From a virus, in the IMG/VR virus record IMGVR_UViG_3300024999_000038, positions 32,001 through 96,000 of that record: 64,000 nt of DNA. The stretch is one strand, 5' to 3'. The notes under the pieces are model-generated. The model was given only the letters and a program-made list of their open reading frames with translations, was not told where the DNA came from and made no database searches. Shown here in pieces: positions 12,764 through 64,000 of the stretch. Each line of letters begins with the position of its first letter. Position 1 is the first letter of the stretch. A program made the translations under genes and the position numbers.

Positions 12764-12769
12764 GAGTAC

Positions 12770-18869: not shown

Positions 18870-19203
18870 ATCCCACGAAATACGAATTTCGAAGTATTTT
18901 AAATTAGAAAGGAGTTTTAAAAATGTTTGAATGGATTGTAGAAAATACTAGAACTGTAGAGGGGATTATAAACTTATCAAAACAAGATTTATATTATGCT
19001 TGGAAATATCTTGAAGAGGACAGAATTGAAATGTCAAGCGAAGTTGTTAGTGAATTAGCTACTCAAATGTGTTTTAATTATTAGGGCAGTCAGTGCCCTT
19101 TAAAACCTCCAAATCTGTATAATAATCATAACAGCACACTTACATAGGTTGGAGCGTTTAAAGGATATTGAAATCCTAAATAAAATTAAGGGAGTTGTAT
19201 TTA

Positions 19204-19542
19204 ATGGAATTTGATATTAAAAAATCTTATTGGTGTGAAACTGGAAAATTTCAAGAGGAGATAGATAAACTTAATGATTTAATGCCGGACTATGGATATA
19301 CAACTAACGATTATATGAATTTATTTGTTGCAATTTCAAAAGTTTATTATCGTAAATATAACGATGGTGATTCAATTTTTGAATTTGAAAGGATAGTGGA
19401 AAAATATATTGAACCTTTTACAGAGCAAATTAACTTCAATTCTAATAAGGATTATGAAGGGCATGATCTTGAAAATTTAGTTGATAGGGTAGTCGAATTT
19501 ATCAAGGATAAAGATTTAAGGTATGAAAGCATTGAATCTTAG
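19204..19542 (+). CDS. Hypothetical protein
   Basis: AAGGGAG RBS; ATG 19204. Confidence 0.75.
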   Translation: MEFDIKKSYWCETGKFQEEIDKLNDLMPDYGYTTNDYMNLFVAISKVYYRKYNDGDSIFEFERIVEKYIEPFTEQINFNSNKDYEGHDLENLVDRVVEFIKDKDLRYESIES

Positions 19543-20276
19543 GGCAATCAAAGCCCTTCTAAACCCTTCTGAACTCTCATATCAGCCATAACAGCCAACA
19601 CATTATAACACCACGACTATGAGCGTTCAGGAAAGTATTAAAACCTTAAAATAAATAAAGGAGGAACGCATCAATGAGCAAATTAAAATTACTCCAAGAA
19701 TTCAAAGTAATCTGTGATACTCATCAAATTCCATTCACTTTTGAAAACTTCGAAAAGCTTATCGCTCATATTTCTAAATAATCTTACATATGCTATATTA
19801 AAAAATAAATCCAAAAATAAATTATGAAAGAAGGAATTCCAATGCAAAAGTTTGAGAACTCTCAAAACTTAACCCTGAATGCTTCAATTCTTAATTCCTT
19901 ATATCTAGGTAAAAAATTAGTGTATAGATTCTTCAAAGGAGAAATTATAAATATTGCTTATTATTCAGACCTTGAACCTGTTCCATATGCTGAAGTGAGA
20001 CTAACACTATGGAATAACCGGACAGTCACTAAGATTATGAAGTTATCTGATGTGGTTATTGTTGCTTCCAGTAAAGTTAAGAAGGAAAAGAAATCAAAGA
20101 AATCCAAGGTAGCAGCATAATTTGTGTAATTTAATAGGCATTGCATAAAGCGTAAAATAATTATAACAATTGTCATTCATACGCTCGCTCATGCAATGCA
20201 ATTTTAAAATACATTGGTTAGAATGTATTAGTCGTTTTAACTATAACAAAAGCATTAAGGAGGTCGCCCAACTACT

Positions 20277-20537
20277 ATGTCAAACATAAATGTATTAAAA
20301 TCTAATTATGATATCATTCTTAGAGAAGCAAGTCAAAAAGGATTTACTTATACTGGAGATAATTTATTATCCTATATTCAGTGGAAATCAAAAGGATATA
20401 TGATCACAAGAGACCAGAAGGCGTTCATTATGGTTTATCTCTGGAATAAAGGTGAGAACAGAAGGAAAGTATTAACTGGACTCTTTACATCAGAGCAAGT
20501 TAAGAAAACTCGATGCAATCAATTTAGTATGGTATAA
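20277..20537 (+). CDS. ArdC N-terminal-like ssDNA-binding domain protein
   Basis: LLSYIQWKSKGYMITRDQKA...LFTSEQV resembles the TY.QW...G..V.KG.KA...F...Q motif. Confidence 0.6.
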   Translation: MSNINVLKSNYDIILREASQKGFTYTGDNLLSYIQWKSKGYMITRDQKAFIMVYLWNKGENRRKVLTGLFTSEQVKKTRCNQFSMV

Positions 20538-21023
20538 TCTTGTAAATGGCATTTATGCTATAACAGTTTGAGTTCTGATATTCAGAGATTATTTGAATAA
20601 ATTACTAGGAGGTTTTAACATGATGCAAGATGAATATAAAAATGATTTTTTCAGTCAAAAGTTTTGTTGGGTATTAGATAGCAGAACATTCTTTCAACAT
20701 CAAAGTGCAAAGGAATATTTGATTAGGATGCAAAAACGATCAGAACAATTTGTTGTAGGTTATTTGGTATTACTGAAAGAAGAATATTATAGACTAAAGG
20801 ATCAGAAAGAGCAGACAAATCAATTAGAGGAATTATTAAAGGATACTATATAAGTCCTTTAGCGTTGATATCTACGCCATTTTAGCAATAACAGAACACT
20901 CAAAATGGTTGCAGGTATTTATGCTAAAGTCCTTGTAATGGGCTAATAAATAAGAAAGGAGAAGAAATTTAGGTCTATAAATAACAAAATAAATAAAAAG
21001 AAAGAAGGTATAAATAAAAAAGA

Positions 21024-33144: not shown

Positions 33145-33160
33145 AAAGGATAGTTGAGTC

Positions 33161-38664: not shown

Positions 38665-38958
38665 AGACTCTTACTACAGTAGGGTTACAGGATTCTCTAA
38701 ATCCCAAGAAAGACTCATTTCAAAGTTAGGAGGTTTATCAATGAAATTTTATGAATTTGAACAAAAGAAACCAAAAAACAATAGGGATCTATTAATTCAA
38801 TTTAAAGAATATGGTTGGGGAATTGGAAATACTCTTAGTACAGGTTGTGCTAAATTTGTAGAGGATAAATGCATTATGTTTCCTACTATTTTAGAGATAG
38901 AAATGTCTTTAGATAGAATTGTAAGATGGAGTTATATTTAGAAAGCGAGGGAATATAA

Positions 38959-39300: not shown

Positions 39301-39606
39301 AATGGAAGAAAGAGATTATTCATTAACATTTGGGTTCATTGGAGAAATTGAGGATATGTATAATGAACTAAGATACCTTAGAAAAGAAGTAGTAAGATTA
39401 CAGGGGATTGAAAAACAATTTAATGACTCAGTGCAAGAATCAATTAAAAACAGCCATGAAATGATGGGTAATTGGTTAAATGTTTTAACAAGTGGTAAAA
39501 TATCAATTAATCCATAATCATCAAAAGTGAAACCCTTATGGGAGTAGGGTTACAGGGTTTGATACTTAGGATAAAATACTTATTTGAAAGGAGGATAAAA
39601 AACAAA

Positions 39607-39780
39607 TTGGATGAAAAAGAAATACCAAAAGCATTAAAATTATATCATGGGACATATAAAAGAGATCGTGGTAGAGTTCATTGTCCTAATTGCGAAGAGT
39701 TATTACCAGTAGGAAACGGAAAAATTTCGAATTGTCCGTTTTGTGACCAAAAATTAGATTGGGATTTACCAATGAAGTAA
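39607..39780 (+). CDS. Zinc-ribbon protein related to 38395-38664
   Basis: TTG start after AAAGGAGG; EKEIPK...CPNC...CPFCDQKLDW. Confidence 0.65.
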   Translation: MDEKEIPKALKLYHGTYKRDRGRVHCPNCEELLPVGNGKISNCPFCDQKLDWDLPMK

Positions 39781-41549
39781 ATTATATAGATGAAGGATGA
39801 GATTTAATTATGTTTATTGTTTATGAGATTACAGCAACAGCACATTTTGCTTTTTTCAATGAACAAAAAGTAAGGCACAGAGAATTAATTACTGATAAAA
39901 ATATTATCACAGATAAATTCTTAAAGGATTGGGAACAAAGAGTTATTCGAGCAACAAAGGAAAATATGAGAGAAGTTTTAAAACTGACTGATTTTAAAAT
40001 TGAAGAACTTGTTGTGTTGGAATCTTTAGATGAATTAAGAAAGTAAGAGGAGGAGATAAAATGAAAGAATTTATTATTAATCATTTTAAAATAATTTATG
40101 GTGGTGGATTAATCATATTATTTGTTTTGATTTTGCTTCAATCATTTATGGGAAAATTTTATCCAAGAAGTTAATTTAGACGAGGAGGAATAAAATTGAA
40201 ACAAAAATCAGAAGTAGAAAAATTCCTAAACAAAACAAAGAAAAAGTTTGATCATTTTTACGGTGAAGATGTGGTAAAAATCATAGACAATAATTTTGAA
40301 ATGCATATGATTATAAGAACTAAGCATAGTTTAAATATTCCATCTAGAGAAGACAATGAACACACTTATTATTTTCTTAGAGAAATTCTAGATAAATCGG
40401 ATCAAATATTTATCAATGTTAATCATGAAGGGTTATTGGAGACTTGGTTTGTGTTTAATGGTTTAGATTTTAATTTATAGAAGGAGAGATTAATTATGAA
40501 TATTAATTATAAATTTGAAGGCAATAAAATAACTAAAACTATTGAATCTAAACTTACTGAAAAAGAAATCGATTTATTAAAAAGAATAAATCATGAATGT
40601 AAAGTTAATATTACCAGTTGTCCTAGATTCGATGAAGAAAGAGAACTAAATATATCTGTTTATCATTTAAGAAAATGCAATTTAGTAAAAGATCAATTTG
40701 GAATAGATGAATATACAATTACAGATATTGGCTGTGATTTTCTTAAAAGTTATGATAATTTCCATAATTCCAAAAACTAAGAATCAAGCTACAAACCACT
40801 TTCAGGGTTCACAATATCCCATAAAAATTGCATTTTAAACCATCAAAACATTAAGGAGGTAAACTTTTGAAGAATTTTTATTTAACAGATTCAATGAATA
40901 AATCAGAAAAAATAAATGCAACGAAGGAATTTTTAAATGATTATATAGATGAAGTAGAAAATTCTGACAGTGATTATGTAAAATTAAATTGTGGAGAAGC
41001 AGTTGAAATGTATAAATTACTTTTAGAACTTATTAATTTAGCATAAAGAAGGAGAGATTTAATTATGAAAGCAATTGTAAAAGGTAATCAAATCCAATGC
41101 CCAATATGCCAAAACAATGAATTTAATATAGAAGAAGATATTGAAATTAGAGGAACAATAAGAAAGAATTTTGAAGATCATTTGTATAATATCTGCAAAG
41201 ATGAATTGGAATGTAGGAATTGTTGATGGACAGGATATTTTCAAAATAATGTAGATCCTGAAAAAGATTATAAAGCAAATAAAATTACTTATGAAAGATA
41301 ATTATATTCAATTAAAAATTAAAGTAATCCGCAATTGTAAATCCTGCTTATACCACTATATGAAAGACCTAGAGGATGATCAATGTTATGAGAAAGGTGG
41401 TTGTGCTCAATTCTCTCCCATAGGACTTAGACCGAAAGATGTTGAAGTTGTTGTAGAAATTATGTCAGATAAATCCAAACATTCTCTTGAAATACATTAT
41501 GATTAGTGATATGATAAATCAAGAAATAATTATATTGGAGGCATATAAA

Positions 41550-41762
41550 ATGACATCACCAGCAAGAGAAAAACATATCGCTTCAATCAACGCTACCTTA
41601 GTCAAACATGGAGACATACTTGACTGATGGGGAATGTACCATATTGGAAACTATAAATTTGATACACGCCAAGTAAATCTTAAAATATATTTTGGTAAAA
41701 TTAAAATAAAGTCAATAGTTATGACTAAATTAGATTTAGAATCGTCGAGAAAATGTTGGTAA
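41550..41762 (+). pseudogene. Small gene interrupted by in-frame TGA (41625-41627)
   Basis: GGAGG RBS, MTSPAREKH...DILD*WGMYHIGNYKFD... frame stays open after the stop. Confidence 0.6.
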
Positions 41763-42267
41763 TTTATACAAAGAATGAATGTGGAAACTAATGGCTTTGA
41801 AACAATGGATTGATGCTATCCGAGAATATTTTAAACGACCACCTACATATGATCAACAATGGAAAAATAATTATTTTACAAAGGAGGTTATTTAAATGAA
41901 TGAAGCAGATAAAAACCTTGAGGATTTTAAAGAAGCTCAAAAACAATTAATTGAGTTGCTAAAAGAAGAAACTTTAGAAAGCATTCAACAAAAGATAAAT
42001 GATTCTAAAGGAGAAGTAAAAGAACTTTGGAAATGGGTATTGAATGCAAAAATATATTATGATAATTTATGTAAACAATGTAAAAGGTAAAAATAATTAA
42101 ATATAGAGGAGTTGAAACAAATGAAAAAGATACTCATAATTGCCGTTCTAATCATTCTAACAGTAGCAACTTATATTAACCTAAAATCTACCAATTCAAA
42201 TGCTTACAAGTCCAATCCAGGGCATACAGTGAAGATTTAAACCACAAAAAGGAGATGAGTCTGCCTT

Positions 42268-42846
42268 ATGGAATTCGTCCAACCAATACGCGACAAAACA
42301 AAAATTGAACAAATGAAACAATATCTAAAATCACATTCACTTAGAGATTATACCCTTTTCACATTAGGAATTAATTCCGGCCTAAGAATATCTGATTTGC
42401 TAAAAATGAAAGTATCTGATGTTGTAAGCGAGGATGGTAAAATTAAGGATCGGATTTCTATTCGAGAGAAAAAGACTGGCAAGGCGAAGACGTTTCCTTT
42501 TAGTCAAAATGTAGTCGAAGCATTAAAAGAATATCTTATCACAATTCCAAGTAATCAAATAATGCTATTTGCTTCTAGAAAAATTGAAGGCTCCGAAGGT
42601 AAAGGTTCCATAAGCAGACAAAGAGCATACACCATATTAAATGAAGCAGCTAAAGCTTGCGACATAAAAGGACAAATTGCGACACATTCACTTAGAAAAA
42701 CTTTCGGATTTATGGCTTATGAAGCTGGAGTGGACATAACTCGTATCCAGTCCATTCTCAACCATTCTTCGCCTAAAGAAACGCTCAGATATATTGGTAT
42801 AACTCAAGATGAACTGGATGACGTTTATTTAGAATTAAACCTTTGA
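42268..42846 (+). CDS. Small tyrosine recombinase (catalytic domain only)
   Basis: SGLRISDLL (R), EKKTGK (K), HSLRKTFG (HxxR), LNHSS...TLRYIG (H,Y); 192 aa. Confidence 0.95.
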   Translation: MEFVQPIRDKTKIEQMKQYLKSHSLRDYTLFTLGINSGLRISDLLKMKVSDVVSEDGKIKDRISIREKKTGKAKTFPFSQNVVEALKEYLITIPSNQIMLFASRKIEGSEGKGSISRQRAYTILNEAAKACDIKGQIATHSLRKTFGFMAYEAGVDITRIQSILNHSSPKETLRYIGITQDELDDVYLELNL

Positions 42847-42869
42847 TTAAGAGAAGGAGGTGAGAAATA

Positions 42870-43016
42870 CTGAAATATAATTTCAAAAGCGATGGATACC
42901 CATTAAAATGTAAATGTGGTGAATGGTCTAAATGGTGCTTAGTTCTTGATTCAGGCAAAGAAATCTATGTTTGCGAACGATGTTTTAAAAAAGATTGGGA
43001 CAGAAGATTAAAGTAA
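42870..43016 (+). CDS. Small zinc-finger-like protein, CTG start
   Basis: AAGGAGGTG RBS then CTG AAA TAT...; CKC...CERC. Confidence 0.5.
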   Translation: MKYNFKSDGYPLKCKCGEWSKWCLVLDSGKEIYVCERCFKKDWDRRLK

Positions 43017-43441
43017 GATTTATTATACAATTTTAATTAGAATCTAATTAGATACAAAAATAATTATAGAGAGGAGCAATTACATAATGTATCAATTATA
43101 TTTCCTACCAAAGCGAGTCATCCAAGAATATCAAACTAAAATTCATGGTGGTAAAAACTTAACTTCTCCAATAATATCTCGTAGAGTAAGTGCAATGATT
43201 TACGCTACAAAATATTGTAGAGTTGATTTAGGCAATGGCAAATATCAACATCGTTTTGGTCACTGTAAGATAACTGTTGAAGAAAATGCTAAAGTTGTAT
43301 CTAAGATTGAATATACTATTGTCGGCAATGTTAGTGGAAGTGATGGCAAGTTTTATGATCAATTATGTAAGATTTGCTATAGACTTAATGATAAGCATAC
43401 AGATTTTGCTTCAAGTAGTAAAAATAAAAATTATAGACAGG

Positions 43442-43651
43442 ATGATAAAATTGGAAACAAAAGAATGTCCCAAATGTAACAGCATCAATGTTGGTTTATA
43501 CCAAAATATATGTGAAACTACTTCAAATGGATTTGGATTAAGAATACAATGTAATGTTTGTAAATTTGTTCCACCTAAGTCAAAATGGCAATGGAATTCA
43601 GCTAAAAAAGCAATTGAAATTTGGAATAAATATAAAAGAAAAATAGATTAA
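43442..43651 (+). CDS. Lar-family restriction alleviation-like zinc ribbon
   Basis: KECPKC...IQCNVC...SAKKAIEIWN. Confidence 0.6.
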   Translation: MIKLETKECPKCNSINVGLYQNICETTSNGFGLRIQCNVCKFVPPKSKWQWNSAKKAIEIWNKYKRKID

Positions 43652-45209
43652 AATGTTGATTTCGAAGTATTAAAAGAAGGGGAGTTATTTATTATGAAAG
43701 TAGATGGAGAACCATGCCCATATTGCGGTAAACACACATTTAGTTCTACTCATCTAAACGAGAGTGGAATGTCATATGTTGAATGTTATAAAGAGGATGG
43801 AGGTTGTGGTAGACCATATGTTGTATATGTTCCTGCTCCGACTGTTCAGGCAAGAAAATTAACCGAAGAAGAAATTAACCACATTCAATATATTTATCCT
43901 TGGCACAAAGAATTAAATATGAGTAAATGAAACTTAGCATTTCTGGGAATTAAGAAAGGATGATAAAATGAGTATTAAAAATGAACTATCAAATAAAAAA
44001 GAAAAAGCATTAATATACACTTGGAAGATTAATGATGTCGAACCAAATGAAAAGATAAAAATAAAAGAAATATTTGAGGCAACACCTATTAATGGCTTAG
44101 ATTTATTTAAATGGTGTGCTTTTTGCGGAGCCATGATTGAAAATGCAGAGGAAATAAATTTAGAAGATTATTATTTTCTTGAATTTGTAGGTTGTGGATC
44201 GTACAAAGCAACAAAAGCAGAGAAAAATGAATTGGTAAAAATTATTTCCTCTGTAGCAATGAGCAAAATTTGTGCAGGAGAAAATGTATATCGTAAAGTG
44301 GCAGGACATTATAAATTAGTTGAAGGAGGACATGACATATCAAATATAGCAGATTGGTTTTGTTATGGAGAATGGTATGCTGAAAGTAATTAAACTATAT
44401 AGAAAGGAGTAAGTGGTAATTATGATTAAATGTGAAACATTTGTATTCTTTAAGAATAATGTAAGATCAATTATTGCAATACACATTAAATGTAATTTAT
44501 TCACAAGAACATTTTACCTTGATAAAGAAATTGAATGGGTATCAGGGCCAGTTTATGATTGTATATTAAATAAACAAAAGATTGAGGTAAAATTAGTTAA
44601 TGATGATCCTAAATATGAGTTTCTAGTTGATGTTGTAGAATGGGAAGAACTTAAAACTTATAATGATCAGATTAATGAGTTATTAAAATAGAGAGGATGA
44701 GTAATAAATGAAATTAAATCTAACAATCGTAGGACAATCAATGCAAGAAATAAGAAATGCAATGGATGAATTCATGAAAGAATTTAATGACAATAGATTA
44801 GACAGTAATTGTAATTGGCCTCTTAATGATGGTAAACAAACTGAAATTGATTATGAGTTTACTAATGGAACTGATGTTTTCAATAAAAGCATGGAAGGAG
44901 AAGAGATTGTATATCCATATCAAGGCGAACAATGGTGGGAAGAAATAAGGAAAGAAGTTGTATTGGGAAGGAGTTAAAGTTATGTTAAAATTTGAGGAAA
45001 TGTTTATTAAAGGAAGATCAACAAATATTGAAAATCCTGCTTACAATAATTATTCTCAGTTATGGGAATGGTACAAACTTCACACTGAAAATAAAAAATT
45101 TCTAGAGAAAACTAAAAATAGAAAACCTATAGTAGATTTTAAAATTAGAGATTAATTCCATTCAAACTGCGATTTTAAATGATAATAATTTTAGAAAGAA
45201 GGAATCAAA

Positions 45210-45689: not shown

Positions 45690-48600
45690 ATATGAAAATC
45701 ACAACAACTTTAGAAGTATCCAAAGAAGAGAAAAATCTAATTCATTCTGCCCTAACAACATATGTTGAACATCTCACCAAAATGCTCTCAGACAGTCCAG
45801 AAAGTGGTTGTAAGACGTTTATTAATACTACCCTAACAAACGCCAATCGTCTATTATCTGAGATGGAATTAAGCTTATAAAGGAGAATAAACGAAATGTC
45901 TGAAACAGAATTATTAATTCAAGAAACAATAATATATCTGTTAGAAATTAGAAAAGATTATTCTAAAAGTGTATCAATGGATGATATTGGGAAAGTAAGG
46001 ACTATAACTAATGCTGTAGAATTATTACATCAGTATTTAGGATTGATGCAATAAAGGAAAGGAGATTAAAAATGAAAAACAATAAATTGACAAAAGAAAT
46101 AAAAGAATTCTTTTCAGAAAAAGGAATCGATAATACACAAGAAAAATTAATTATGTGGTATGGATTTGCAGAATTGCAAATTAAGGAAGATACTTATTGG
46201 AGTCCTTGCGAAAACTGCGATAATCCAAGTTGTAGTAAAACAGAAGATTTTCCAATATGGTTTTGTGCGGATCAGAGATAAGAAAGGAGATTACATAAAT
46301 GTTTTTTTATTTAACTAAACAAAAAGCAGAAGTCAAGAAGGAAAAAATTATTAAAAGAGATGTCAAGAAATTTAAGAAATTATGTTTTAAAGAGTTCAAG
46401 TACAATGTAAGTATGGGCAAAGGTGTTACATTTGTAGATTTTTGTTCAAATGTAAATCATGATTTTCAACATGAGATAGCAAAAATTGTACTAGAAGAAT
46501 TAAAACAAGAACATAAAAACATAGATTTTTCATTTTGTTTCAGACATTGTGAAAATAGTTATCAAGGGATTAAAATGGTGGCATTATGATGTCAAACACA
46601 TGTATTTCTTGTAGATTTTACTCGCCATGTTCTATTGTAGGTAAATTGTGTGATATCTTAAACGGTTATTATCATTATTATGAAGAAAATCCAATAGCAA
46701 AAGATTGGAACAACGGGCATTGGGATGATGATAGTGGAGATTAATCTAATTAAAGGTATTCTTATCCAACTTGTCGAATATATCACTTATATAAATTAAA
46801 ATTAGTAGAATTAGCAGGTGATAAAATGAATTATCAAGTACCAAAATGTAATAAATGTCAACACCATAAACATAATTCATTTCTCAGAGGATCACATTAT
46901 TGTACATTTTCAGCAATTAACAAAGATGAGATAAATGAGTGGATAAGAGTCTATGGTAGAGATATGAAGACGAGTCCTAAATGGTGTCCGATAAGAAAGG
47001 AGAAGGAATTATGATTAAAAATTTTAAATTTTTACAAAGAGAAAAATATTCGGAAGACATAGATATTTTATGGTTTTCAATTGGTAAATTTAATTTTAGA
47101 TGGTTTACAGATTATGGATGGTGGTTTATTTATATTGAATTGGAAGATGATAAAAATATAAAAGGATATAGATTTAGTAGTGCAGGTAATATGAAGATTG
47201 ATAATAAGAAAGGATGAATAAAATGATAATAGAACAAGAATTTAAAATAGACAATAGAGTAGTACATTATGCTTATGGAGAAGGGACTATATTAGGCAAT
47301 TATCACAAAAGATTAGACGGTAAATATTATTGGCATATTCAATATGATAATGGCACATTTGGTTATAATCAAGAAATAAGTCTACATTTGATAGATTAAA
47401 TTAATTCTTAAAAGGAGAATAAAAATAAGATGCAAAGAGATTTAACATTGGAAGAACTAATATTACTTAATAAATCCAAAGTAAAAATGCTTGAAGATAA
47501 ATATAATATTCAAATTAATGTCCAAACACACAGTATTGGGATGGGCGATAAAGGGTATGATTATGGTATTTATAATCCACAGAATGGTAAATCGTGGTCG
47601 AGTGATATAGATGGTGAGCGTTTAGAGATTGATGTTTTATGGGTAGTTTATTAAACTCTATAAATACACTTTGAAAGGAGATATAAATATGAGAGATTTT
47701 ACTAAAGAAGAATCTAAAAGATATGAGGAAGTGTTGAACAAATTATACAAACCTACAGGAAGAAATTTCTTTGATGATATTAGCGAGAATGAAAAACCAA
47801 TAAATATTTACATAGTAATCCGAAGACAGTCAACTTATAATTTTGGTACAGACGAAAGAATTTTAAAATCTTTTACAAGTGAAGAATCTGCACAACAATT
47901 TATTAATAAGGATTGTATTTCAACATCAGAAAATGTATGGTTTTCAATTGAAGAGTGCGAATTAGTTTCCTAGAAATTTCCACTTTCAACGTAATTTAAA
48001 AATTATAATGGAGGATGAAAATATATGAATGCAATACAAACTGCAAAAGCGATTATAAGGATAATAGATGATATAGAGGCAAATGCAATCGAAAGTGAAT
48101 GGGATGAATTAAACGAACTAAGTCAAGGTGATGATATGAGTTTACAAGTAGTTGCAGATAAACTTGTTAAACTAAATCAAAGAGTAAATGAAAGAATAAA
48201 AACAGAACGTTATAGGATATCTATAGTTGATCATGAACAAACTACAATTGATTTCGCATTTAATCAAGATACAACAATGAAAGAGTTTATTTCAGAGTTA
48301 GAGAAAACCGCACATTGTGATATATCAGACATAAAAATACGTTATATATGCAGGGAATAAACCCACCAAAAGACATCTTTGAATGGATTTTTGAAAATAA
48401 TTAGAAAGAAGGGTGTTTATGAACAATTTAAAAATTAAAGCATTTATTAAACCAAAATTTGATAAACATAATAGTTTTGATTATGGTGGATTTGATGTGG
48501 GTGAAGGGACTCCGTACAAGATTGTATCTATTAATTTTAATAGACGATCCATTACAGTTCATGAACCTAAATGGATTGATTGTATGGCATTTTCAATTAA

Positions 48601-52263: not shown

Positions 52264-52714
52264 GAGGTGAATACCCCATGAGCGAACCATTATACGAGTG
52301 TCCAAAATGTCACACTTATCACAATACAAAAGAATGGAATGATTATAATAGATTAGGTATTGAACTTCGTGCAACAATTAAATTACCAGAAGCAATAGAT
52401 AGAAAAGCAAATTTAATTTGTCCAACTTGTTACAGAAGAGTTTGTTGTGGAGATATGTGTGAAATAATTTAAGGAGTAAAATTATGAATAAAACAAAATG
52501 TTTAAATACATTAGCTTGGTTCATTTGGAAATCACAAGAAGACAATTGGAGTCTTGAATATGACAAGAAAATTGATTCTAAAATATTTGGGATTATTGAC
52601 AATGATGAATATGATGGATGGAAATTCGTTCCAGTTTTACATATGGGATCTTATGTTTATGATGTTAAAATTAAAGGTTAGAAGGATGAATAAGTAGGAG
52701 TAAGGTGAGAAAAC

Positions 52715-53128
52715 ATGTCAAAAATTAAACATAGTTGGATAGATGATCTAGAATGCGGAGATATAATCCAAAGACATGAAACAGGTGTAACTTATTCATT
52801 TGTTGGAATAAATGAAGATGGTGAATATATGTTATATGGTATGCCTTATGGACATAGCAGAGAAGTATTTGAAACATTTGTATTAGTTAAAAAGAAAAAT
52901 GAGATTAAGATTAATGAACATCCTAAAATAAAAAATCATAATATTAGTAAAGAATTAGGATACACATCCCTTGAGCAATTTGAATATGAATACAATGGTA
53001 TTATTGAATTTAAATTATCATCTACAGAAGATATACATTCACTAATTGGTAGACTTATACATGAGAAATGGAAATTTGCTGTAGATGATTATACTTCAAC
53101 AACATTAAAAGTAAAATTTAATAAATAA
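52715..53128 (+). CDS. Hypothetical protein (N-terminal domain paralogous to 58181-58378)
   Basis: WI.DLE.GD.I.....G..Y.F.G.N..G.YML.GMP.G..RE..ETF.L..KKN. Confidence 0.8.
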   Translation: MSKIKHSWIDDLECGDIIQRHETGVTYSFVGINEDGEYMLYGMPYGHSREVFETFVLVKKKNEIKINEHPKIKNHNISKELGYTSLEQFEYEYNGIIEFKLSSTEDIHSLIGRLIHEKWKFAVDDYTSTTLKVKFNK

Positions 53129-53213
53129 TTGTAGGATGAATTTAAGGATGTGATGATATATATGATTGTGATAAATAAATTTTAGCAATTATGAAAGGAT
53201 GATTAAACAAATA

Positions 53214-53435
53214 ATGAATAAACAAACAAATAATTATCCAAAAGACTATTGCATAATGTCTTTACAATTAGCTCAGATATTGATGAATAAAGGTTATGAA
53301 TTACATAATACTGCACCAAATAAAAAATTTCCTAATCTAAATGTTTATTATTTTTATTACAATGATTTAATTGAACAAGAAGTAAAATTATATGAACAAA
53401 ATAATAAAAGAAATAAATTTAACAAACAATTTTAA
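53214..53435 (+). CDS. DUF5659-like small protein
   Basis: SLQLAQILMNKGYEL....PN.......VYYF; start 53199 or 53214. Confidence 0.6.
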   Translation: MNKQTNNYPKDYCIMSLQLAQILMNKGYELHNTAPNKKFPNLNVYYFYYNDLIEQEVKLYEQNNKRNKFNKQF

Positions 53436-53501
53436 ATTTATTTTTCGGTAGGGAGGATATTAGTTACTCTTATTAAGAATTAGTCTCTCTTATTACACCT
53501 T

Positions 53502-53577
53502 ATTAGGCGTACTGAATTTGACACGGGTAAACTTAGGTATACCTTAGATTAGGCGTACTAGATTTAGTACGGGTAAA
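53502..53577. repeat. Iteron-like 30-bp direct repeats
   Basis: ATTAGGCGTACT-N9-ACGGGTAAA at 53502-53531 and 53548-53577. Confidence 0.85.
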
Positions 53578-53625
53578 ATTTTACCTTATTTATAAAACAA
53601 ATTTAGCAAAGGACAGTGAATTAAC

Positions 53626-55056: not shown

Positions 55057-55757
55057 GTGAGAATAAGGGGCGGTTAATTCCGTCCCTATATTTAAAGGAG
55101 GTGATAAAAAATGAAAGAACGTATTACAATGAAGCAGTTAAAAGAGTTAACTATTGATCAATCAATCAAATTAAAAAGTTGGTGGCAACCAAGAAAGTAT
55201 GACGTTATTATGGTAAAAGATAAAACATTTACTTTTAATAAATTACACTTTAAGACAGATGTTATTTTCGAAGATAATTATGATACTCAAAAAGAATTTC
55301 GTATGCCATTATTGTCAATTGGTCAGATGCTAAATATTTTATATGATTATAAATATGATTTTATCAATACTCACAATCTAAATTGGTACGGACATAATGA
55401 AACAGTATTATGTAGTTTAGGATTCATTATTACTTCATATCCAGAGTATATTTGTGACGCTCTTTGGGAAACTGTAAAAAGTATTTTATAAATACCAATG
55501 AATGTTCTGTTTCGAAGTATTATAAAATAATTAAGGAGGTGATAAAAATGTTATATTGTCCTCACTGTGATGAATTCCATTTAGATAGTGAATTAACCAT
55601 TCTTGTAGAACTTGATTATGTAGAATGTTTTAAATCAAATAGAGAAATAAAAACATACAAATATATCAATTCTGAAAATGTGATTACTTGGAGAAAAGAA
55701 CATGATTTTACTGAACTGTAAAATAAAAAATAAGATAATAAAAGGAGAGATAAAATA

Positions 55758-56477
55758 ATGGAATTAAAATTTATTGGCACAGGTTCAGCGTTTAATACTA
55801 AATTAGGAAATACTTCAGCATATATCAAAGAAAATGGTTGTTTATTACTTCTTGATTGTGGTGAGTTGACTTTTGATAGGATTATAAATATGAATCTATT
55901 AAATGATGTTAATGAAGTACATATTGCTGTAACTCATTGTCATCCAGACCACATAGGGAGTTTAGGGAGTTTAATATTCTATTGTCATTTTATTAAGAAA
56001 ATTAAGCCGATATTTCACGCAGTTGATATTAAATCTATTGAATTATTAGAACTTATGGGAGTTACTTATGATCATTGCTATTTTTATAATTGTATGGTTG
56101 ATAAGTTTGCAGAAATTAAATCTCTTAATCTTCAATTGTTATTCGTTCCTACAAAGCACGTAAATAAAATGAATTCTTTTGGAATATTAATTGCTAATCT
56201 AATCACAAGAAAAACTATTTATTATAGCGGAGATAGTTGTGAGATACCAAAATCTATTTTGTATGGTTTAAAATGCGGAGAACTTCATTATTTGTATCAA
56301 GATACTTGCAAAGTAGATTATGATGGTAATGTTCATTTGTCCTTAAGGAAACTTACAGAACTTATTCCCGAAGAGTTAAGGAGTATGGTTTATTGTATGC
56401 ATTTGGACAGTGTATTTGATAGAAGTGAGGCAGAGGGACTAGGATTTAATGTTGTTGAGATTGAAGGAGGTGAATAA
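55758..56477 (+). CDS. MBL-fold metallo-hydrolase, Apyc1-like
   Basis: GTGSAF, LLDCG, THCHPDH, YSGD, VHLS...CMH. Confidence 0.75.
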   Translation: MELKFIGTGSAFNTKLGNTSAYIKENGCLLLLDCGELTFDRIINMNLLNDVNEVHIAVTHCHPDHIGSLGSLIFYCHFIKKIKPIFHAVDIKSIELLELMGVTYDHCYFYNCMVDKFAEIKSLNLQLLFVPTKHVNKMNSFGILIANLITRKTIYYSGDSCEIPKSILYGLKCGELHYLYQDTCKVDYDGNVHLSLRKLTELIPEELRSMVYCMHLDSVFDRSEAEGLGFNVVEIEGGE

Positions 56478-56478
56478 A

Positions 56479-57030
56479 ATGGATTTTAACAAAGAATTGC
56501 AAATACTTAAGCAAAAAGAGCAAGAATTAATTAATAAAGCAAAGGCTAAAGGTTATAAATTTATCAATAATCAATTCACCAAAGATGAATTTATTCCTGT
56601 GATAGAGATTTATGCATACGGAGAAACAACTTATGAATCTTATGGTAATTTTATGATATTTAAAAAGACTATACCTTTAACAAAAGAACAGCTTTTAGAA
56701 ATCAAAGGTATACAGCAAACCAAAGAAAATATAATCAATGATTTTATGTATAATGATGGATTCTTAACAAAATTAGATGGATTAGATAGTTTTTATGATA
56801 TATCAGAATGGCATGGTATGTTGGATTCAGAAAACATTGATGGAATAGTAGAAGATTTAGAGGAAGAATATTCAATGTTAGAGGATGGATGTAATTTATA
56901 TTTAGAATTTTTCTTTGAGATAGAAGAGGGATTAAGGGGCTATATTAGTGTTTATGATATGCCATTAGATAAATTAGGACAACAAGATAATATAGATTTA
57001 ACTTTGCATAAATATCTTACTCAAAATTGA
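56479..57030 (+). CDS. Acidic hypothetical protein
   Basis: GGAGGTG RBS before MDFNKEL. Confidence 0.8.
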   Translation: MDFNKELQILKQKEQELINKAKAKGYKFINNQFTKDEFIPVIEIYAYGETTYESYGNFMIFKKTIPLTKEQLLEIKGIQQTKENIINDFMYNDGFLTKLDGLDSFYDISEWHGMLDSENIDGIVEDLEEEYSMLEDGCNLYLEFFFEIEEGLRGYISVYDMPLDKLGQQDNIDLTLHKYLTQN

Positions 57031-57089
57031 TACCCTATGAAAGTCAATTTTCAACGGATAAAAAATAAATAATAAAAGGGGAATTATAA

Positions 57090-57509
57090 ATGAGAGAAAT
57101 TAGGTTTCGTGGTAAGTGTGTAGACGATAATGAATGGGCGTATGGAGATTATTATTCATCTGATGAAATGCCAATGAGGGGAGAAATAGGGCATTTTATT
57201 AAGTGTGGATTAAATGAAGAGTATAGAGTTATCCCTGAAACTATTGGTCAATATATTGAACTTCATGATAAAAACAAAAAGTGGATTTATGACGGCGACA
57301 TTCTAGAAAGAGAAGGTTATTGGTCTATAAGAATTGAGTATAAAGAAGGAACATTTTGGATTCGTGATTTAGATAAGGTGCGTTATAATAATAGGATACT
57401 AAATACACCTATAGCATTGTTTACAACTCTTAACGAATATGAAGTGATTGGTAATATTTTTGAGAATCCAGAGTTATTAGAAGAGGGAGATGAATTAAAT
57501 GAAAACTAA
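57090..57509 (+). CDS. YopX family protein
   Basis: MREIRFRGK...W.YG...IGQY..L.DKN...IY.GDIL...EVIGNIFENPELL. Confidence 0.92.
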   Translation: MREIRFRGKCVDDNEWAYGDYYSSDEMPMRGEIGHFIKCGLNEEYRVIPETIGQYIELHDKNKKWIYDGDILEREGYWSIRIEYKEGTFWIRDLDKVRYNNRILNTPIALFTTLNEYEVIGNIFENPELLEEGDELNEN

Positions 57510-58143
57510 ACCATATTTGAACTATTTTAAATATGTCCTAGAACACAAAAAGAATGTCTTTAAAACTTGTTGGAAAAGAAAGTTATATCTCCACGCCATT
57601 ACACATGATTTAAGTAAATTTAGTCCTAAAGAATTTATGCCTTATGCAGAATGGTTTTACGGATATCATGGTGTAAAACTAGAAAAGGAATATAATAAAG
57701 AACAACTTAATAATGGAATGTCATGTTTAAGTAGAAATTATTTAGAGTGTAAAAGCAATTTTGATAAAGCATGGGAGCATCATTACAATAATAATCCTCA
57801 TCATTGGGACTACTGGTTGGACGAGAAGGGGATTCCTAAACCAATCTCTTATGATTATCTGCAACAAATGTTAGCAGATTGGGAGGGGATGAGTTTAAAA
57901 TTTGGTGGAACTGCACAGGAGTATTATTTAAATAATTATCATAAAATTAAATTAGAAAGGGATACAAGAATAAATTTAGAAATGTTGTTAGGTTTAAATA
58001 ATAGTTTAGCACATAATTATGGTCATACATTAATAGAATTTGCAAATAAATACGATAAAAGTGATTATAATATGATTTTTAGGTTTATTAAAGATAGGTA
58101 TGAAATTGATACATATGAATTGTTAAGAAATAAAATCCAATAA
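57499..58143 (+). CDS. DUF5662 family (HD-like) protein
   Basis: HKKNV...HDLSKFSPKEF...AWEHHYNNNPHHWDYW...MLADW. Confidence 0.8.
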   Translation: MKTKPYLNYFKYVLEHKKNVFKTCWKRKLYLHAITHDLSKFSPKEFMPYAEWFYGYHGVKLEKEYNKEQLNNGMSCLSRNYLECKSNFDKAWEHHYNNNPHHWDYWLDEKGIPKPISYDYLQQMLADWEGMSLKFGGTAQEYYLNNYHKIKLERDTRINLEMLLGLNNSLAHNYGHTLIEFANKYDKSDYNMIFRFIKDRYEIDTYELLRNKIQ

Positions 58144-58180
58144 AACCCAGATTTTATCTTATGAAGAGAGGAAAATTTAA

Positions 58181-58378
58181 ATGAAAAAGGTTAAAAAGAA
58201 TTGGATATATGAATTAGAACGTGGTGATATGATTTCAAAAGGTGAATTGGGAGCGTCTTATGAATTTATGGGGATGAATGATGAAGGTTTATATATGTTA
58301 TGCGGTATGCCTTTTGGATACTATAGAGAAACTATGGAGACGTTTAAATTACTACGCAAGAAAAATGCGGTACAATGA
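58181..58378 (+). CDS. Hypothetical protein (paralog of 52715 N-terminus)
   Basis: Shared motif with 52715-53128. Confidence 0.8.
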   Translation: MKKVKKNWIYELERGDMISKGELGASYEFMGMNDEGLYMLCGMPFGYYRETMETFKLLRKKNAVQ

Positions 58379-58450
58379 AAACCTTATTTGATGTGCCCAT
58401 GGTATAAATATAAAAAGTAAATAAAAGAAAGAAAGAAAGAAGGAATAGTT

Positions 58451-59401
58451 ATATATACAGCAGTAGATTTTTTCTGTGGTATGGGTGGTGTTTCTAAAGG
58501 ATTAGAGGATGCAGGTTTTAAAGTTTTAAAAGGGTATGATATGTGGGAAAATGCACTTAAAACTCATAAACAAAATCTGCAAAATATTGATGTAGAAAAT
58601 ATTGATATTACAAAATTGGAAATCGAGGATATCCCAGATGCAGATTTATACCATTTTAGTCCACCATGTCAATCTTTTAGTACAAGTGGTAAAAAGGAAG
58701 GAGCTAAAAGTGATAAAGGTCAATTAATATATGAAACAGTTAGGATTTTAAAAGGCAAAAACCCAAAGGCATTCACATTTGAAAATGTAAAAGGATTAAC
58801 CTTAAAAAATAATAGGAGCGATTTCGATAAATTAATAAGTATATATGAAAATATTGGTTATGTATGTTCGTGGAAAGTAATTAATGCTTATGATTATGGA
58901 GTAGTTCAAAGCAGAGAAAGGTTAATTTTGGTTGGTATAAGAAAGGATTTAGATGTAGCTTATGAATTTCCAGATAAAATTCCTAATAATAAAACAATAA
59001 AAGATGTTATAAAAAATATAAAAAACAATAAAGGTGTATTAAAACACAAACCTGAAACAGTAGAAAAAATAAAACATGTTCCATATGGAGGTTCTATTTT
59101 AGATATTCCATCCGAAATAAGACCTAAAGCGTTTGGCAATGCTTATGTTAGATTAAAATGGAATGAAATACCTCCAACTATTACTAGAAATTATAATTGT
59201 CCATGTAGTGCAAATTGTATTCATCCAGAAGAACATAGGGCGTTAAGTGATACAGAAGCATTGCTTATACAAGGGTTTGATGAGGAGTGGGAGGTATTAG
59301 GAACAGGTAAGGATTTACAGATAGGCAACGCATTACCACCACAAATAATGAAGGTTATAGGGAAAAGTCTAATACATATTTTGGATATGAAAAATAAATA
59401 A
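58451..59401 (+). CDS. DNA (cytosine-5)-methyltransferase, orphan; probable ATA start
   Basis: Motif I DFFCGMGG begins upstream of ATG 58481; PPCQSFS, ENV, QSRER, QIGNA. Confidence 0.92.
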   Translation: MYTAVDFFCGMGGVSKGLEDAGFKVLKGYDMWENALKTHKQNLQNIDVENIDITKLEIEDIPDADLYHFSPPCQSFSTSGKKEGAKSDKGQLIYETVRILKGKNPKAFTFENVKGLTLKNNRSDFDKLISIYENIGYVCSWKVINAYDYGVVQSRERLILVGIRKDLDVAYEFPDKIPNNKTIKDVIKNIKNNKGVLKHKPETVEKIKHVPYGGSILDIPSEIRPKAFGNAYVRLKWNEIPPTITRNYNCPCSANCIHPEEHRALSDTEALLIQGFDEEWEVLGTGKDLQIGNALPPQIMKVIGKSLIHILDMKNK

Positions 59402-59769
59402 TTCTTGTACAATCAAATTAATAATCTATTTAGTACATAAGAAGTTAAAAATAATTAATCTTTAGGGTATTGCAATTAAGAGCGATACCCTATATAATTG
59501 ATATAGAAAGTAAATTAATGGTGGTGGTATATGTGAAAGGAATAGGATTTTATAAATACCGAAACGAATTAATATTACTTAATGAAAATGATAAGTGGTG
59601 GATAACAAATTATTTTGATATTGAATTTGATAGTATAGAAAAAGCCAAGAATCACATTGACAAACATTTAGGTGGTTGGTCTGGTAAATGTATGCCTCAA
59701 AGATGGTTGAAGGATGAAGCGTTAAAGGAATATTATGAGGGAAGAAAGTATTTTTGAGGAGGAATAAAA

Positions 59770-60369
59770 ATGCGGAAGAGAGTAATGAATAAACATATTT
59801 TAAAAGATAACTTAAAAATTAAAAAAGAATTTGTTAATTCACAAGAAGTGAAATTATTAAATATGTCTGATATCTTATTGGTTGAACCAATACATATTAA
59901 TGCAAATTGTGATATGTCTGAGTCAATTGAAAGATTTAAAAGTAAAAATTTAATACAATTAAACGTCCCTATTGTTGTTAAGGAAGAATTGGATGGCAAA
60001 TATTCATTAGTAATTGGGTATAGTGGTTACATGATAGCAAAATCATTAGGATTTACTGAAGTTCCATGTATTATAACCAGTGAAAAACGAACGGATTTGA
60101 ACTATAAATTAGGTTTTAAAAGTCAGATACCGATTAATGGATCTATAGCAGATAACTATTTATCAATTGATAAGATTACTATTCCCAAACGAATTGTAAA
60201 TGTAAACGAAGAAAAGATTAATAAGTGTATTGAATACTATAATAAGAATGGATATTTTAAGAAGCCTATACTTATTCGAAAAAATGGAGTATGTGTAGAT
60301 GGGTTTTCAATACTAATTGCTGCCCAGAGATTGAAATTGGATAAAGTTGAAGTTGAAATTAAGGTATAA
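59770..60369 (+). CDS. Protein with two degenerate ParB/Srx-like domains
   Basis: PIVV.....YSLVIGYSGYMIAK.LG..EVP and KPILI.....VDGFS...AAQRL....VEV. Confidence 0.6.
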   Translation: MRKRVMNKHILKDNLKIKKEFVNSQEVKLLNMSDILLVEPIHINANCDMSESIERFKSKNLIQLNVPIVVKEELDGKYSLVIGYSGYMIAKSLGFTEVPCIITSEKRTDLNYKLGFKSQIPINGSIADNYLSIDKITIPKRIVNVNEEKINKCIEYYNKNGYFKKPILIRKNGVCVDGFSILIAAQRLKLDKVEVEIKV

Positions 60370-62975
60370 AATGTTGCGTTTAAAGTAAGTTAAAAAGGAG
60401 ATATTATTATGAATTTACTCAAAGTTTCACTTTCTGAATCATTACAAGAAGAATTGAATAAGGAAATTATTTTCTCATTAAAGGATTTAGGTTTCAAAAT
60501 AGATAAAGAGATTAATTGGAAAGGTGCTATTTTGCTTTGTCACAAGACAAAACAGGGAATTATAAATATCAGGCAATGGGAAGAACAATTCCAAAAATAT
60601 GCCTGTTGGAGATTCACAAAAAAGAAAGAATTAAGTTTTGATAAGTATGAAGAAGGAGGAAAGTAAAAATGAACAGTGAAAATATGATAGTAAATCTTAA
60701 TAATGAGGATATAGTGGGATTATGTAATGATATTTACGATTGGGAGAAGGGCAATGGCGATCTGAATAATGATAGTAAATTAAGAAAGTTATTTTTAAAT
60801 CATCGAAACATTTTTCGTGATATTTACCATCTTAAAGATTTAATATTATTTGAGGCACATGAAAGGTTTCATAAAGTTGCTAGAATATTGATTATAAATA
60901 ATCCTAGAATGTTTATTAAGTAGATAGTGCCAAGAAATGATGTTTTTATCTTATTATGAAAGGAGTGAATAATATAAATGAAATATTCAAGAGCTAAAGT
61001 AGGAGACAAAGTAAGTTTTACTTTATGGGAACAGCGTTCAGGATGGATGGAAAATCCTAAAACCCCACCTTATTATGGTGTGATAATGCGTAAATACAAA
61101 AATTATTTAGGAACATTTTATGATGTGAAAAGAGATATAGATGGCAATGTTATAAAATTACTTGGTTGTGATTTTCAAAAGGTATAGAATCTTGCTTTTA
61201 AGTTATTTAAGGAGGAGAAAATTTAATGGATTGTATTTATAAGTTGGGGCTATCAGTAAATATGTTTGGAAAGAAAACACGTTATTCTTTTACCGTATTG
61301 AGATGTAATGTAAAAAGTCAAACAAAAGATAATGTTATTCTTCATGATAGCAGAAGAATTAAAAAAGAGAATCTAGATAAAATTATTGATGGATTTTTAA
61401 CTAATAGTTCAAGGAATATAAATTATGTAATTTGGACATTTGATTTATCTAAACAAGAACTTTATAAAAAGCAATTAGTAGGAAAAATAACTTTTCAAAT
61501 AGAGAAATATAAACAAGAATTAATAGATTTAGAACAAGCAATGTTGTCTGAGCCGCAATTTACAGAATTAGATAGAGAATAGTATCCTACGAAAGAAGGG
61601 TTTCTTAGGATTTAGATTGGAGGGGATTAAAAATGGAATATATTAATTGGGAATGTAAAGATTGTGGATGGCAATGGGTAGGAGATAGAACAGATGCATG
61701 GTGTCCTTGTTGTGATGAGAATAATATTTTCTCTCCTAGTCATATAATTGAAGAATGAAGGAGAAATTTAAAATGATAGAGAAACAAATTATGATTCCTA
61801 AAACAGTTTATGAAACAAGTGATGGGCAACAATTTGAAAAAGACTATGATGCAGAAAAGTGGGAGTGTAAACTATATTTTAAAAATAATATGGAAAATAG
61901 ATATCGGGATGTTATGGAAATCGGATACTGTGTGCTTAATTCCAAAGAAGAAACTGAAATTTTAGAAACATTATCTAGGAATGGTTATATTAAAAAGGGA
62001 TTTTATAGTCATTATTTAAATGATGAAATTAAATTTCCTATTATGGTTAAATTTAAAGAAGAATTTGGGCGGTCAGCCGTAATAGCAACGAAAAATGATT
62101 ATGATAGATTTAAAGATATGGCAGAAAGATTTCAAACGCTTTGCAAGATGTACGAGTCAGTAAATTAACTATAGGAGAAGGGTATGATGGCAAATTGATC
62201 ATAATTAACGATGGTTCATTATCGGAGATATATTTTGATTATGGTGAAATGATATATACTAAATTCCAAAAAGGGAGTTACATTGAATATATTCCTTTTG
62301 GAAAATTTATGTCGTTTAAATGCTCTAAATATTGTATTGATTTGGTTAACGAAAATGGAGAGGCGATGCCATTGGATTTATGTTATAGATTTGTCGAATA
62401 AAGAGAAAGGTTGTTGAAATTTATGACAAAAGATGATTCATTAAGAATTCTACATAAATGCATTAAAGAATTAAATAATATGAGTCAAAAAGAATTTGAT
62501 CAAAAAATGTTGCAACAAGGAGCGTTCTTTGATGAATACTCATATGAGGAAGATGGTTTTAGTTTAGTATTATCTCATGAACATATTCCTAATAAATAGC
62601 ATTGAAAGGAGTTTTGTGATAATATGGAAACGATTAAACTTTCACAGCTAAATACAGATACAACCATTGCGTATGGTAGTAAAAATATTTTAGCATGTGC
62701 GGAAAGATTGTTCTATGATATTTATGAAGGGAAAAGAAAAAGAAAAGCTATTGCAATTATTGGTGATAAAAACTATGAAGTAGAATATGATATAAATCTA
62801 GAACAGATTAAAAAGGTTATAATTTGTTGTAATCACAATAAAGAAGTTGATAAGGATGCCAGCAGATGCCAGTTCGGTTGTGATGATTATTTAGAGGATA
62901 AGGAATTTGAAGGTAGTTGTTTGGAAATAAGACATTTATTAATTTAAATACAGTGAAAGGCAGAGGTTATAAGTT

Positions 62976-63245
62976 ATGGCAATTTGCGGATATTGTAATA
63001 AAGATATGTCAAAAGTTAATTCGTGTGTTGAGGTTGCAATTACAATCAACAAAGAAGTGTATAAACCAATACCTTATGGTCAAGAAACAAGAATTAATTG
63101 GGAATCTGAAAGATGTCATGATTGTAATATTGAACAAGGTGGATTACATCATCCAGGTTGCGATGTAGAAGAATGTCCTGTATGTCATGGTCAATTAATT
63201 TCTTGTGGATGTATAGATGATGAGGAGAAAGAAGAAATTGACTAG
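62976..63245 (+). CDS. Cys/His-rich zinc-binding phage protein
   Basis: CGYC...RCHDC....G.HHPGCD.E.CP.C.GQLISCGC. Confidence 0.75.
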   Translation: MAICGYCNKDMSKVNSCVEVAITINKEVYKPIPYGQETRINWESERCHDCNIEQGGLHHPGCDVEECPVCHGQLISCGCIDDEEKEEID

Positions 63246-63601
63246 AAAAAGTGTAAAAGAAGCTGTTTAGGAAAGGAGGTATTAGGTATGGAAAGCTATC
63301 CTGAGAAATTAGTTCAAACTGTAATTGAATACTTAGAAGAAACCAAAGGAGCAAAGATATTTCATTATGACTCATACACTGGGACACCTTACAAAGACAA
63401 GTCTATTACAGATACTACTTATCGTATTTATGTTTTATATGGTAATTTATTTGAAGTTTTTAGTTATACTATAAATTCTAAACCAGAATGGAATTTTGAT
63501 GAAGTATCAGTTAGTTCTATGATTGCTTGGGAAATTAAAGAGTGTTATGAGAAGTCAGGTTGGCCTTGGAGTTAATTTGAGGGAATGGCAGGTGGTTTAA
63601 A

Positions 63602-63787
63602 TTGTTTGATGAAGATAATTATATGACGGTTACAGAAGCATCTAAAGCAATAGGTAAAACAAAACAAGAAACACTTGAACTTATTGAAAAGTATCAAATT
63701 AGGAAGTTTAAAGCGTTTCCTAATGATACTAGATTTTTGGTTTCAATGAAAGATGTTAATTTAATTTTAATGAGAAAAAGTCGTTAA
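63602..63787 (+). CDS. Small excisionase-like HTH protein
   Basis: YMTVTEASKAIGKTKQET..LI...I..F....RFLV...DV. Confidence 0.55.
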   Translation: MFDEDNYMTVTEASKAIGKTKQETLELIEKYQIRKFKAFPNDTRFLVSMKDVNLILMRKSR

Positions 63788-64000
63788 AACAAAAGTTTGA
63801 AAGGATTATGATATGGGTTGGGAAGAAAGAGAAAAGCAAGAAATTACTAATCTAATATTTGATATATCTATGATATTAATATTTTGTATATTATTTGTTT
63901 TTGTTGTTATAACCCTATGAATCGAGAGTTTTATGCTAGTTATGGTTATGAAAAACGTAGTAAATCGAAGAATTAGCGAGCATGAGAGAGGTGGATTTTT

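Follow-up and report, generated by a model that had tools for sequence, protein, structure and literature searches.

We describe a family of short intergenic sites in a 64,000-nt stretch of phage DNA (the window), which comprises positions 32,001-96,000 of the 150,268-bp IMG/VR record IMGVR_UViG_3300024999_000038. The dominant motif in the spacers from a stop codon to the next ribosome binding site (RBS) is a 26-bp dyad, TCCnWTRAAA-N6-TTTYAWnGGA. Its centre differs from site to site within the phage and recurs in related phages. To judge from the sequences compared, every core is a conserved address specific to its position. The sites lie at recombination junctions that separate blocks of small, mostly promoterless accessory genes, as a preliminary description of the window had supposed, and we lean slightly towards the view that they are crossover points at which related phages meeting in one cell exchange blocks of genes.

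The record has a G+C content of 28.5% and an estimated completeness of 71%. It represents a large groundwater phage in which nearly all genes lie on the + strand from 30 kb onward. The window encodes YopX, a C5 cytosine methylase, a ParB_N protein, a Bro-N anti-repressor and HNH endonucleases, and it also holds many small open reading frames (ORFs) of unassigned function. A yopQ/yopR-like pair is found beyond the window, at genome positions 121,911-124,000. Scans for sigma-70-type promoters and for terminators found few of the former and hardly any of the latter between 24 and 64 kb of the window, so the small genes appear to be organised in very long operons; the accessory genes between the sites are mostly without a promoter of their own. 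A blastn search of the GenBank phage collection gave no match for 8 kb of the window, and the 150-kb fragment yielded no homologue of YonO.

A dyad motif in the spacers between genes

The motif was derived from 177 post-stop spacers of the + strand (30-130 nt, RBS trimmed) from this genome and five related contigs, by an expectation-maximisation search with a width of 26 and 150 random seeds. The best-scoring seeds had nearly equal likelihoods, and two of them, run to convergence, gave the same motif. Its log-likelihood ratio was 371.6, compared with 72-81 in six shuffled controls, so that the enrichment check suggested in the preliminary description placed it far above shuffled DNA. A site is contained in 55 of the 177 spacers. 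When the + strand of the 150-kb record was scanned with a weight matrix at a threshold of at least 12 bits, 56 matches were obtained (4.7 ± 1.9 expected from local shuffles), of which 44 were intergenic, yet intergenic DNA makes up only 17% of the record. An independent pattern search allowing up to three mismatches gave 36 matches and none for the backwards control. A first reading as a family of 10-12 copies was abandoned after the weight-matrix scan, and a profile for nhmmer based on six seed sites was discarded because it was over-fitted and recovered the seeds only.

The preliminary description had cautioned that AAA..TTT is common in AT-rich DNA. This caveat was fair: over the whole genome the loose pattern AAA-N6-7-TTT shows no enrichment (400 copies, 432 expected); in intergenic DNA it has a mild excess (122 against 92.5 ± 11), and its arm complementarity is only z 1.8. 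The behaviour of the loose pattern would suit an explanation of the sites as chance palindromes in AT-rich DNA. Such an explanation is hardly credible, however, in view of the large excess over controls in the motif search, the matrix scan, the pattern search and the sharing of centres described below.

Between 18,872 and 63,935 the window contains 27-28 sites. The about 35 copies reported previously were thus too many, although the motif itself is real; all six sites given as examples were found again at the same coordinates, as were the three copies that share a right arm (the arm starting at 18887, 43660 and 55510). Sites are listed below in window coordinates, together with the recombinase gene lying among them; scores are in bits and designations beginning with L refer to related loci.

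18871-18896, + strand: site, centre TACGAA; 23.3 bits; directly 3' of the stop of gene 18432-18869
24646-24671, + strand: site, centre GGCAGA; 19.8 bits; centre also in L016
26315-26340, + strand: site, centre TGTAAC; 14.7 bits
28624-28649, + strand: site, centre CTGGTA; 14.6 bits; centre also in L016
29393-29418, + strand: site, centre CATGCA; 20.1 bits; centre also in L016
30098-30123, + strand: site, centre TGACGA; 19.6 bits; overlaps the stop of gene 29907-30110; centre also in L012 and L016
30851-30876, + strand: site, centre TAATAC; 12.8 bits; centre also in L012 and L016
31519-31544, + strand: site, centre GAATGC; 16.2 bits
36633-36658, + strand: site, centre GATAGA; centre in 10 loci; a block 91% identical in L048 ends right after it
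38702-38727, + strand: site, centre GACTCA; 20 nt identical to L017, with unrelated genes around
39567-39592, + strand: site, centre TACTTA; left end of the 4.4-kb, 99.1% block common with L048
40817-40842, + strand: site, centre ATTGCA; homology to L008, L012 and L017 ends at its right edge; contig joints 40838/40843 in three runs
42268-42846, + strand: tyrosine recombinase, 192 aa, YoeC-like, catalytic domain only; PF00589, E 2.4e-28
43644-43669, + strand: site, centre TGTTGA; the most widespread centre, 13 loci
43923-43949, + strand: site, 7-nt centre CTTAGCA; right end of the 99.1% L048 block; loose contig ends 43930 and 43966
45157-45182, + strand: site, centre CTGCGA; 22.0 bits; centre in 12 loci
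47968-47993, + strand: site, centre TTCCAC; 18.5 bits; overlaps the stop of gene 47671-47973
48362-48387, + strand: site, centre GACATC; 14.6 bits; centre also in L012
48776-48801, + strand: site, centre CACAAC; 12.3 bits; centre also in L012
50297-50322, + strand: site, centre TCGTTC; 14.8 bits
55494-55519, + strand: site, centre GTTCTG; 15.8 bits
57033-57058, + strand: site, centre GTCAAT; 18.1 bits; one consensus mismatch; upstream of the YopX gene
58136-58161, + strand: site, centre CCCAGA; 19.5 bits
58371-58396, + strand: weaker site, centre ACCTTA; 13.8 bits
60928-60953, + strand: weaker site, centre TGATGT; at least 11 bits
61585-61610, + strand: site, centre GAAGGG; 20.3 bits; the most palindromic copy
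63913-63938, + strand: site, centre CGAGAG; 16.1 bits

The placement at or just after stop codons noted in the preliminary description was borne out, 71% of the sites beginning within 5 nt of a stop codon where 45% would be expected. A site is present at only about one fifth of the gene junctions. The 30-kb minus-strand region has only two, and the 16 kb surrounding the lysogeny module gave none in the weight-matrix scan. Scans for sigma-70 promoters and for terminators revealed no association of the sites with either. The layout, 10-6-10 with dyad symmetry, agrees with that of tyrosine-recombinase core sites (inverted arms of 9-13 bp, centre of 6-8 bp). The gene upstream of the site at 57033 has no relatives in IMG/VR.

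Palindromes that lie between a stop codon and an RBS, nearly all in the transcribed orientation, might be intercistronic RNA stem-loops governing mRNA processing, stability or translation. The site at 61585, the only copy with a fair RNA fold, indeed reaches -8.9 kcal/mol. Eleven of the twelve sites tested, however, gave values of 0 to -5 kcal/mol, the z-scores over all twelve ranged from -1.8 to +1.3, and the motif scores about equally on both strands. Moreover, the two arms of a site were complementary at 5.47 of 10 positions, compared with 5.38 when arms were permuted among sites (z 0.57). The arms thus fit a consensus without compensating for each other, which argues against hairpins of RNA or of attC-like single-stranded DNA and for a protein acting on duplex DNA. 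Our early reading of the sites as RNA hairpins was rejected for these reasons, the weak folds and the missing covariation of the arms. The sites are not hairpins, and a role as stem-loops in mRNA is very improbable.

Conserved centres and the ends of shared blocks

The AT-rich relatives of the phage have the same architecture, with small + strand genes and a recombinase in the middle of the array. Backbone genes are collinear with those of the window at 60-90% amino-acid identity, many unrelated small genes lie between them, and the units of this mosaic correspond to about one gene. Relatives reached through a DUF5662 gene were too distant, and the motif was not present in them. Of the matches to the GACTCA site in an exact 17-mer search of IMG/VR, one was a true relative; the 21 others arose by chance or lay in coding DNA.

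Within a genome no centre is repeated, neither among the 61 sites of the record nor in the 1,392 within-locus pairs of a larger set, which taken alone proves nothing because only about one repeat would be expected by chance. Between phages identical centres were found in 38 pairs where 2.5 were expected (maximum of 9 in 2,000 column-wise permutations), and 32 non-redundant sequences gave 515 same-centre pairs, although pairs of relatives are not independent events. The order of the centres is collinear: the 84 locus pairs with at least three common centres yielded 604 concordant comparisons and no discordant one. In the preliminary description the core had been taken as merely variable, and this view has to be given up, as the centres recur across phages, each at its own position and in the same order.

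The conservation of the centres does not extend to their surroundings. The outer arms of same-centre pairs are alike at 3.3 and 3.1 of 7 positions, compared with 3.0 and 3.2 for random pairs of sites. Both flanks are non-homologous in 373 of the 515 pairs (at most 14 nt of homology on each side); in 36 homology exists on the left only and in 11 on the right only, ending within a few letters of the centre. At 38709, 20 nt are identical with L017 between plainly unrelated proteins.

These data bear on the main rival explanation, a regulator that binds the arms combined with exchange via 12 shared letters. The sites would then be operators of a dimeric DNA-binding protein, for example the YopR/MrpR-like one of recombinase fold whose gene is situated outside the window, which tunes or silences the long operons, and exchange would be a by-product of the short shared sequence. 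Such operators would have parallels in the SPBRE sites of SPbeta and in the stoperators of mycobacteriophages. A consensus palindrome without covariation is what an operator would look like; the sites lie in the intergenic DNA of long operons with few promoters and terminators; and the genome carries the yopQ/yopR-like pair mentioned above. MrpR of SPbeta, which has a tyrosine-recombinase fold, binds about ten repeated elements (PMC10516654), and the PeSL elements of T4-type phages show that regulatory repeats can mediate shuffling (PMC2839356). On the other hand, one protein cannot read about 50 different centres. The centres are conserved whereas the arms, which the protein would contact, are at background similarity, and why some 50 centres should stay fixed is left unexplained. 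The SPBRE, as derived from six regions bound by MrpR, has another sequence and is located in promoter regions. Twelve shared letters are very short for homology-driven exchange, and the lysogeny module is surrounded by the 16 kb free of sites. Operators, already named as the alternative in the preliminary description, are thus possible as far as the arms are concerned, but they do not account for conserved unique cores, and we regard this explanation as unlikely while taking it seriously. Arms that a protein would contact drift and a centre that it would not contact stays fixed, which is the reverse of the pattern expected of an operator and is expected if crossovers in the centre need matching centres.

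The ends of blocks of high identity were located by comparison with L048, which possesses an identical recombinase and one block of 4,393 bp with 99.1% identity to the window (39570-43960). At the left end of this block the sequences show no relationship before the left edge of the centre TACTTA, where identity sets in. At the right end they are identical through the centre CTTAGCA and two further T, and unrelated beyond. For a second block, of 91% identity, the end comes exactly after GATAGA-TTT. Four older block ends (85-88% identity) fall on start codons, RBSs or stop codons and have no site, and one further older end lies just past a stop codon at a possibly degenerate site. Just left of the TACTTA site both phages have a perfect hairpin, which is different and unrelated in each (39525-39560 in the window, 7250-7300 in L048).

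In a count over the 32 sequences, blocks at least 90% identical had 77 unique internal ends. Eighteen of these were within 8 nt of a centre, whereas 1.1% would be expected in all DNA and 6.7% in intergenic DNA. Left ends clustered at -3 to -7 of the centre and right ends at 0 to +7, and two more blocks were bounded by a site at both ends. The preliminary description had proposed to test whether breakpoints between relatives fall inside the cores; in this count 18 of the 77 ends are close to a centre and 53 lie elsewhere.

Near-identical contigs provided further ends at a stop codon, at an RBS and inside a site. In three public runs of a single groundwater study, contigs are joined at 40838/40843, the right edge of the site at 40817. 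Over 34-50 kb these contigs reflect a mixed population with many joints; only those at 40838/40843 and the loose ends 43930/43966 concern sites, and no frequencies can be derived from contigs. Assembly chimeras cannot explain the junctions, because the 12-nt island of identity is shorter than any assembler's word.

The resident recombinase and the proposed exchange

The catalytic-domain-only tyrosine recombinase that the preliminary description had placed in the middle of the array is intact. It matches PF00589 with 99.5 bits (cut-off 27.1), and all six residues of the catalytic set R-K-H-R-H-Y could be aligned with the XerC-like 4a8e and with XerA 5hxy. More than 3,500 relatives were found, some of them named YoeC. 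Because these are also about 186 aa long, the protein is a full-length member of its family and not a truncation. A literature search found no publication on the function of YoeC. IntI4 (2a3v) aligns to residues 125-178 only (E 2e-4), and there is no extra domain of the IntI type.

In every AT-rich relative fetched through the recombinase the gene lies mid-array, and groundwater metagenomes are the main source of the contigs that carry its closest relatives (59-100% identity). Neither the recombinase nor the motif is present in three more distant relatives whose sequences are nearly complete. Recombinase-bearing loci without sites belong to genomes of 37-49% GC, in which no comparable motif was found. 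Directly upstream of the recombinase L008-L019 and L021-L023 always have a HicA-toxin-like gene and an ORF of 39-41 aa; in the window a 64-aa ORF and a small membrane-like ORF are found there instead. L007 (record G005, 197 kb), a distant relative without a YoeC-like recombinase, has a similar palindrome with different arms, TATAAAA-N6-TTTTATA (10 matches, 4 in the control; for example at 63413, 94255, 101241 and 112547). As this phage has two other tyrosine recombinases, its palindrome may be a parallel site family.

Tyrosine recombinases require matching centres. In the exchange that we propose, the duplex site would resemble the core site of such an enzyme, in which a centre of 6 nt, sometimes 7 nt, is flanked by two inverted arms of 10 bp that follow a loose consensus. 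If matching centres are likewise a requirement of this reaction, neighbouring sites would not pair with one another, and the sole partner of each would be its counterpart in another genome. The block between two sites would then be swapped without loss of genes and with gene order kept. The enzyme acting on the sites is probably the phage's own 192-aa YoeC-like recombinase. Taken as a whole, the picture would be that of an SPbeta-like phage group with a natural, genome-wide cassette exchange, in which about 50 sites with loose arms have unique, population-fixed centres as addresses and a small recombinase swaps blocks in order. This complete scheme is plausible, but we would sooner bet against all of its parts being right than for it.

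Several observations weigh against crossover by the resident enzyme, in addition to the two reservations made above on the counts of centres. The arms are loosely conserved, with about 15 bits in all, and a centre of either 6 or 7 nt is a variability in length unusual for one recombinase. The recombinase lacks the N-terminal core-binding domain, its alignment starting at residue 109 of the 292-aa chain 4a8e, and its family also occurs in higher-GC genomes without such a motif. The same block ends would result if recombination were driven by nothing more than the 12 shared letters. Finally, two adjacent genes have been swapped (45692/45896) with no site nearby, and this, together with the 53 block ends away from sites, means that other recombination is also at work. 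The swapped pair consists of small genes that occupy 45692-46054 in the window and stand in reversed order with respect to L012 (14523-14910) and L008 (9107-9609).

Known systems and neighbouring features

In engineered cassette exchange, heterospecific lox or FRT sites have common arms and different spacers, and only like spacers pair. A block bounded by unlike sites is swapped without deletion or reordering, which is the pattern of the 4.4-kb block in L048. The engineered exchange is a laboratory design with Cre or Flp and 13-8-13 sites, whereas the phage array is natural and has about 50 sites of 10-6-10 with loose arms and a putative enzyme. The arms of the phage sites are unlike those of the dif site of Bacillus subtilis. 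In the pdif modules of Acinetobacter plasmids many sites of the 11-6-11 type, recognised by XerC and XerD, flank small accessory modules that shuffle between replicons (PMC6449649, PMC13141974). They differ in using host Xer enzymes and in having dif-like sequences in alternating orientation, while the centres of the phage sites are position-specific and collinear.

The preliminary description had likened the region to an integron cassette array. An attC site is folded from a single strand, measures 57-141 bp and is carried with its gene; IntI has an extra domain, and insertion takes place at attI next to Pc. The phage array shares with integrons the same-strand, mostly promoterless genes, the sites after stop codons and a resident tyrosine recombinase, but the defining features of attC and IntI were not seen in it. 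The sites are 26 bp long and have no folding signal, the 192-aa enzyme lacks the IntI-specific insertion, a site is not tied to one gene, and no arrangement of attI or Pc was seen. The analogy therefore fails, and it is highly improbable that the array is a true integron-type system, in which folded sites like attC are served by an integrase like IntI.

In the PeSL cassettes of T4-type phages the repeats combine a promoter with a terminator and resemble one another within a genome; they recombine by homology and produce mini-circles (PMC2839356, PMC4122927). Both cases involve short intergenic elements in hyperplastic regions where blocks of genes are exchanged; the phage sites differ in being neither promoters nor hairpins and in having centres that all differ within a genome. 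SPBRE and MrpR (YopR) of SPbeta are similar in belonging to a related phage lineage and in combining a repeated AT-rich near-palindrome with a protein of tyrosine-recombinase fold (PMC10516654). The SPBRE, however, amounts to about ten sites with a different, 15-bp motif in promoter regions, and MrpR has lost catalytic residues all of which are kept in the phage recombinase. Recombinases of the FimB/FimE type, of about 200 aa, are active without an N-terminal core-binding domain and, aided by host bending proteins, invert a single switch. The phage recombinase resembles them in being small and in having no core-binding domain.

By analogy, the closest systems in logic are heterospecific-site exchange and pdif, and the closest in evolutionary role is PeSL. 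What sets the phage array apart from all three is the conservation of position-specific centres across a phage population. No description of such a system was found in the literature searched.

It is an old question whether the breaks at gene borders in phage mosaics stem from random illegitimate recombination followed by selection or from exchange at conserved linkers. Here the linkers are visible, can be counted and have the layout of recombinase sites, and their unique conserved centres predict that like centres recombine and unlike centres do not. If this is true, part of the mosaicism at gene borders would be directed by an enzyme and would not result from random breakage and subsequent selection. 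It would also represent a new way for viruses to trade accessory genes, probably anti-defence genes, safely, and it would make dozens of mutually orthogonal recombination sites available ready-made with a 192-aa enzyme.

Some other features of the window deserve mention. At 1-13000 the small genes are each equipped with a strong sigma-70-type promoter and a terminator of their own, and the spacers 10072-10250 and 10581-10755 are near-duplicates; this part resembles a region of the immediate-early, host-takeover type. The 7-mer ATAACAG has nine intergenic copies and no coding one, and many intergenic regions of 1-24000 have at least one copy. A second repeat family, of about 31 nt, is found at 23040-23080, 31555-31595 and 53135-53175 and in L017 at 18880-18920, two of the window copies being 97% identical. 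It reads as an RBS followed by a tiny start-stop ORF and then a second short ORF, and it is located in the leaders of larger genes such as the Bro-N gene at 31664. A GmrSD_N-domain protein is encoded at 13872-15254, and the C5 methylase (58481-59401) adjoins the ParB_N protein (59770-60369). The protein encoded at 55758-56477 is Apyc1-like, with a metallo-beta-lactamase fold; its score of 49.9 bits is just below the cut-off of 50, and it is a possible anti-Pycsar gene.

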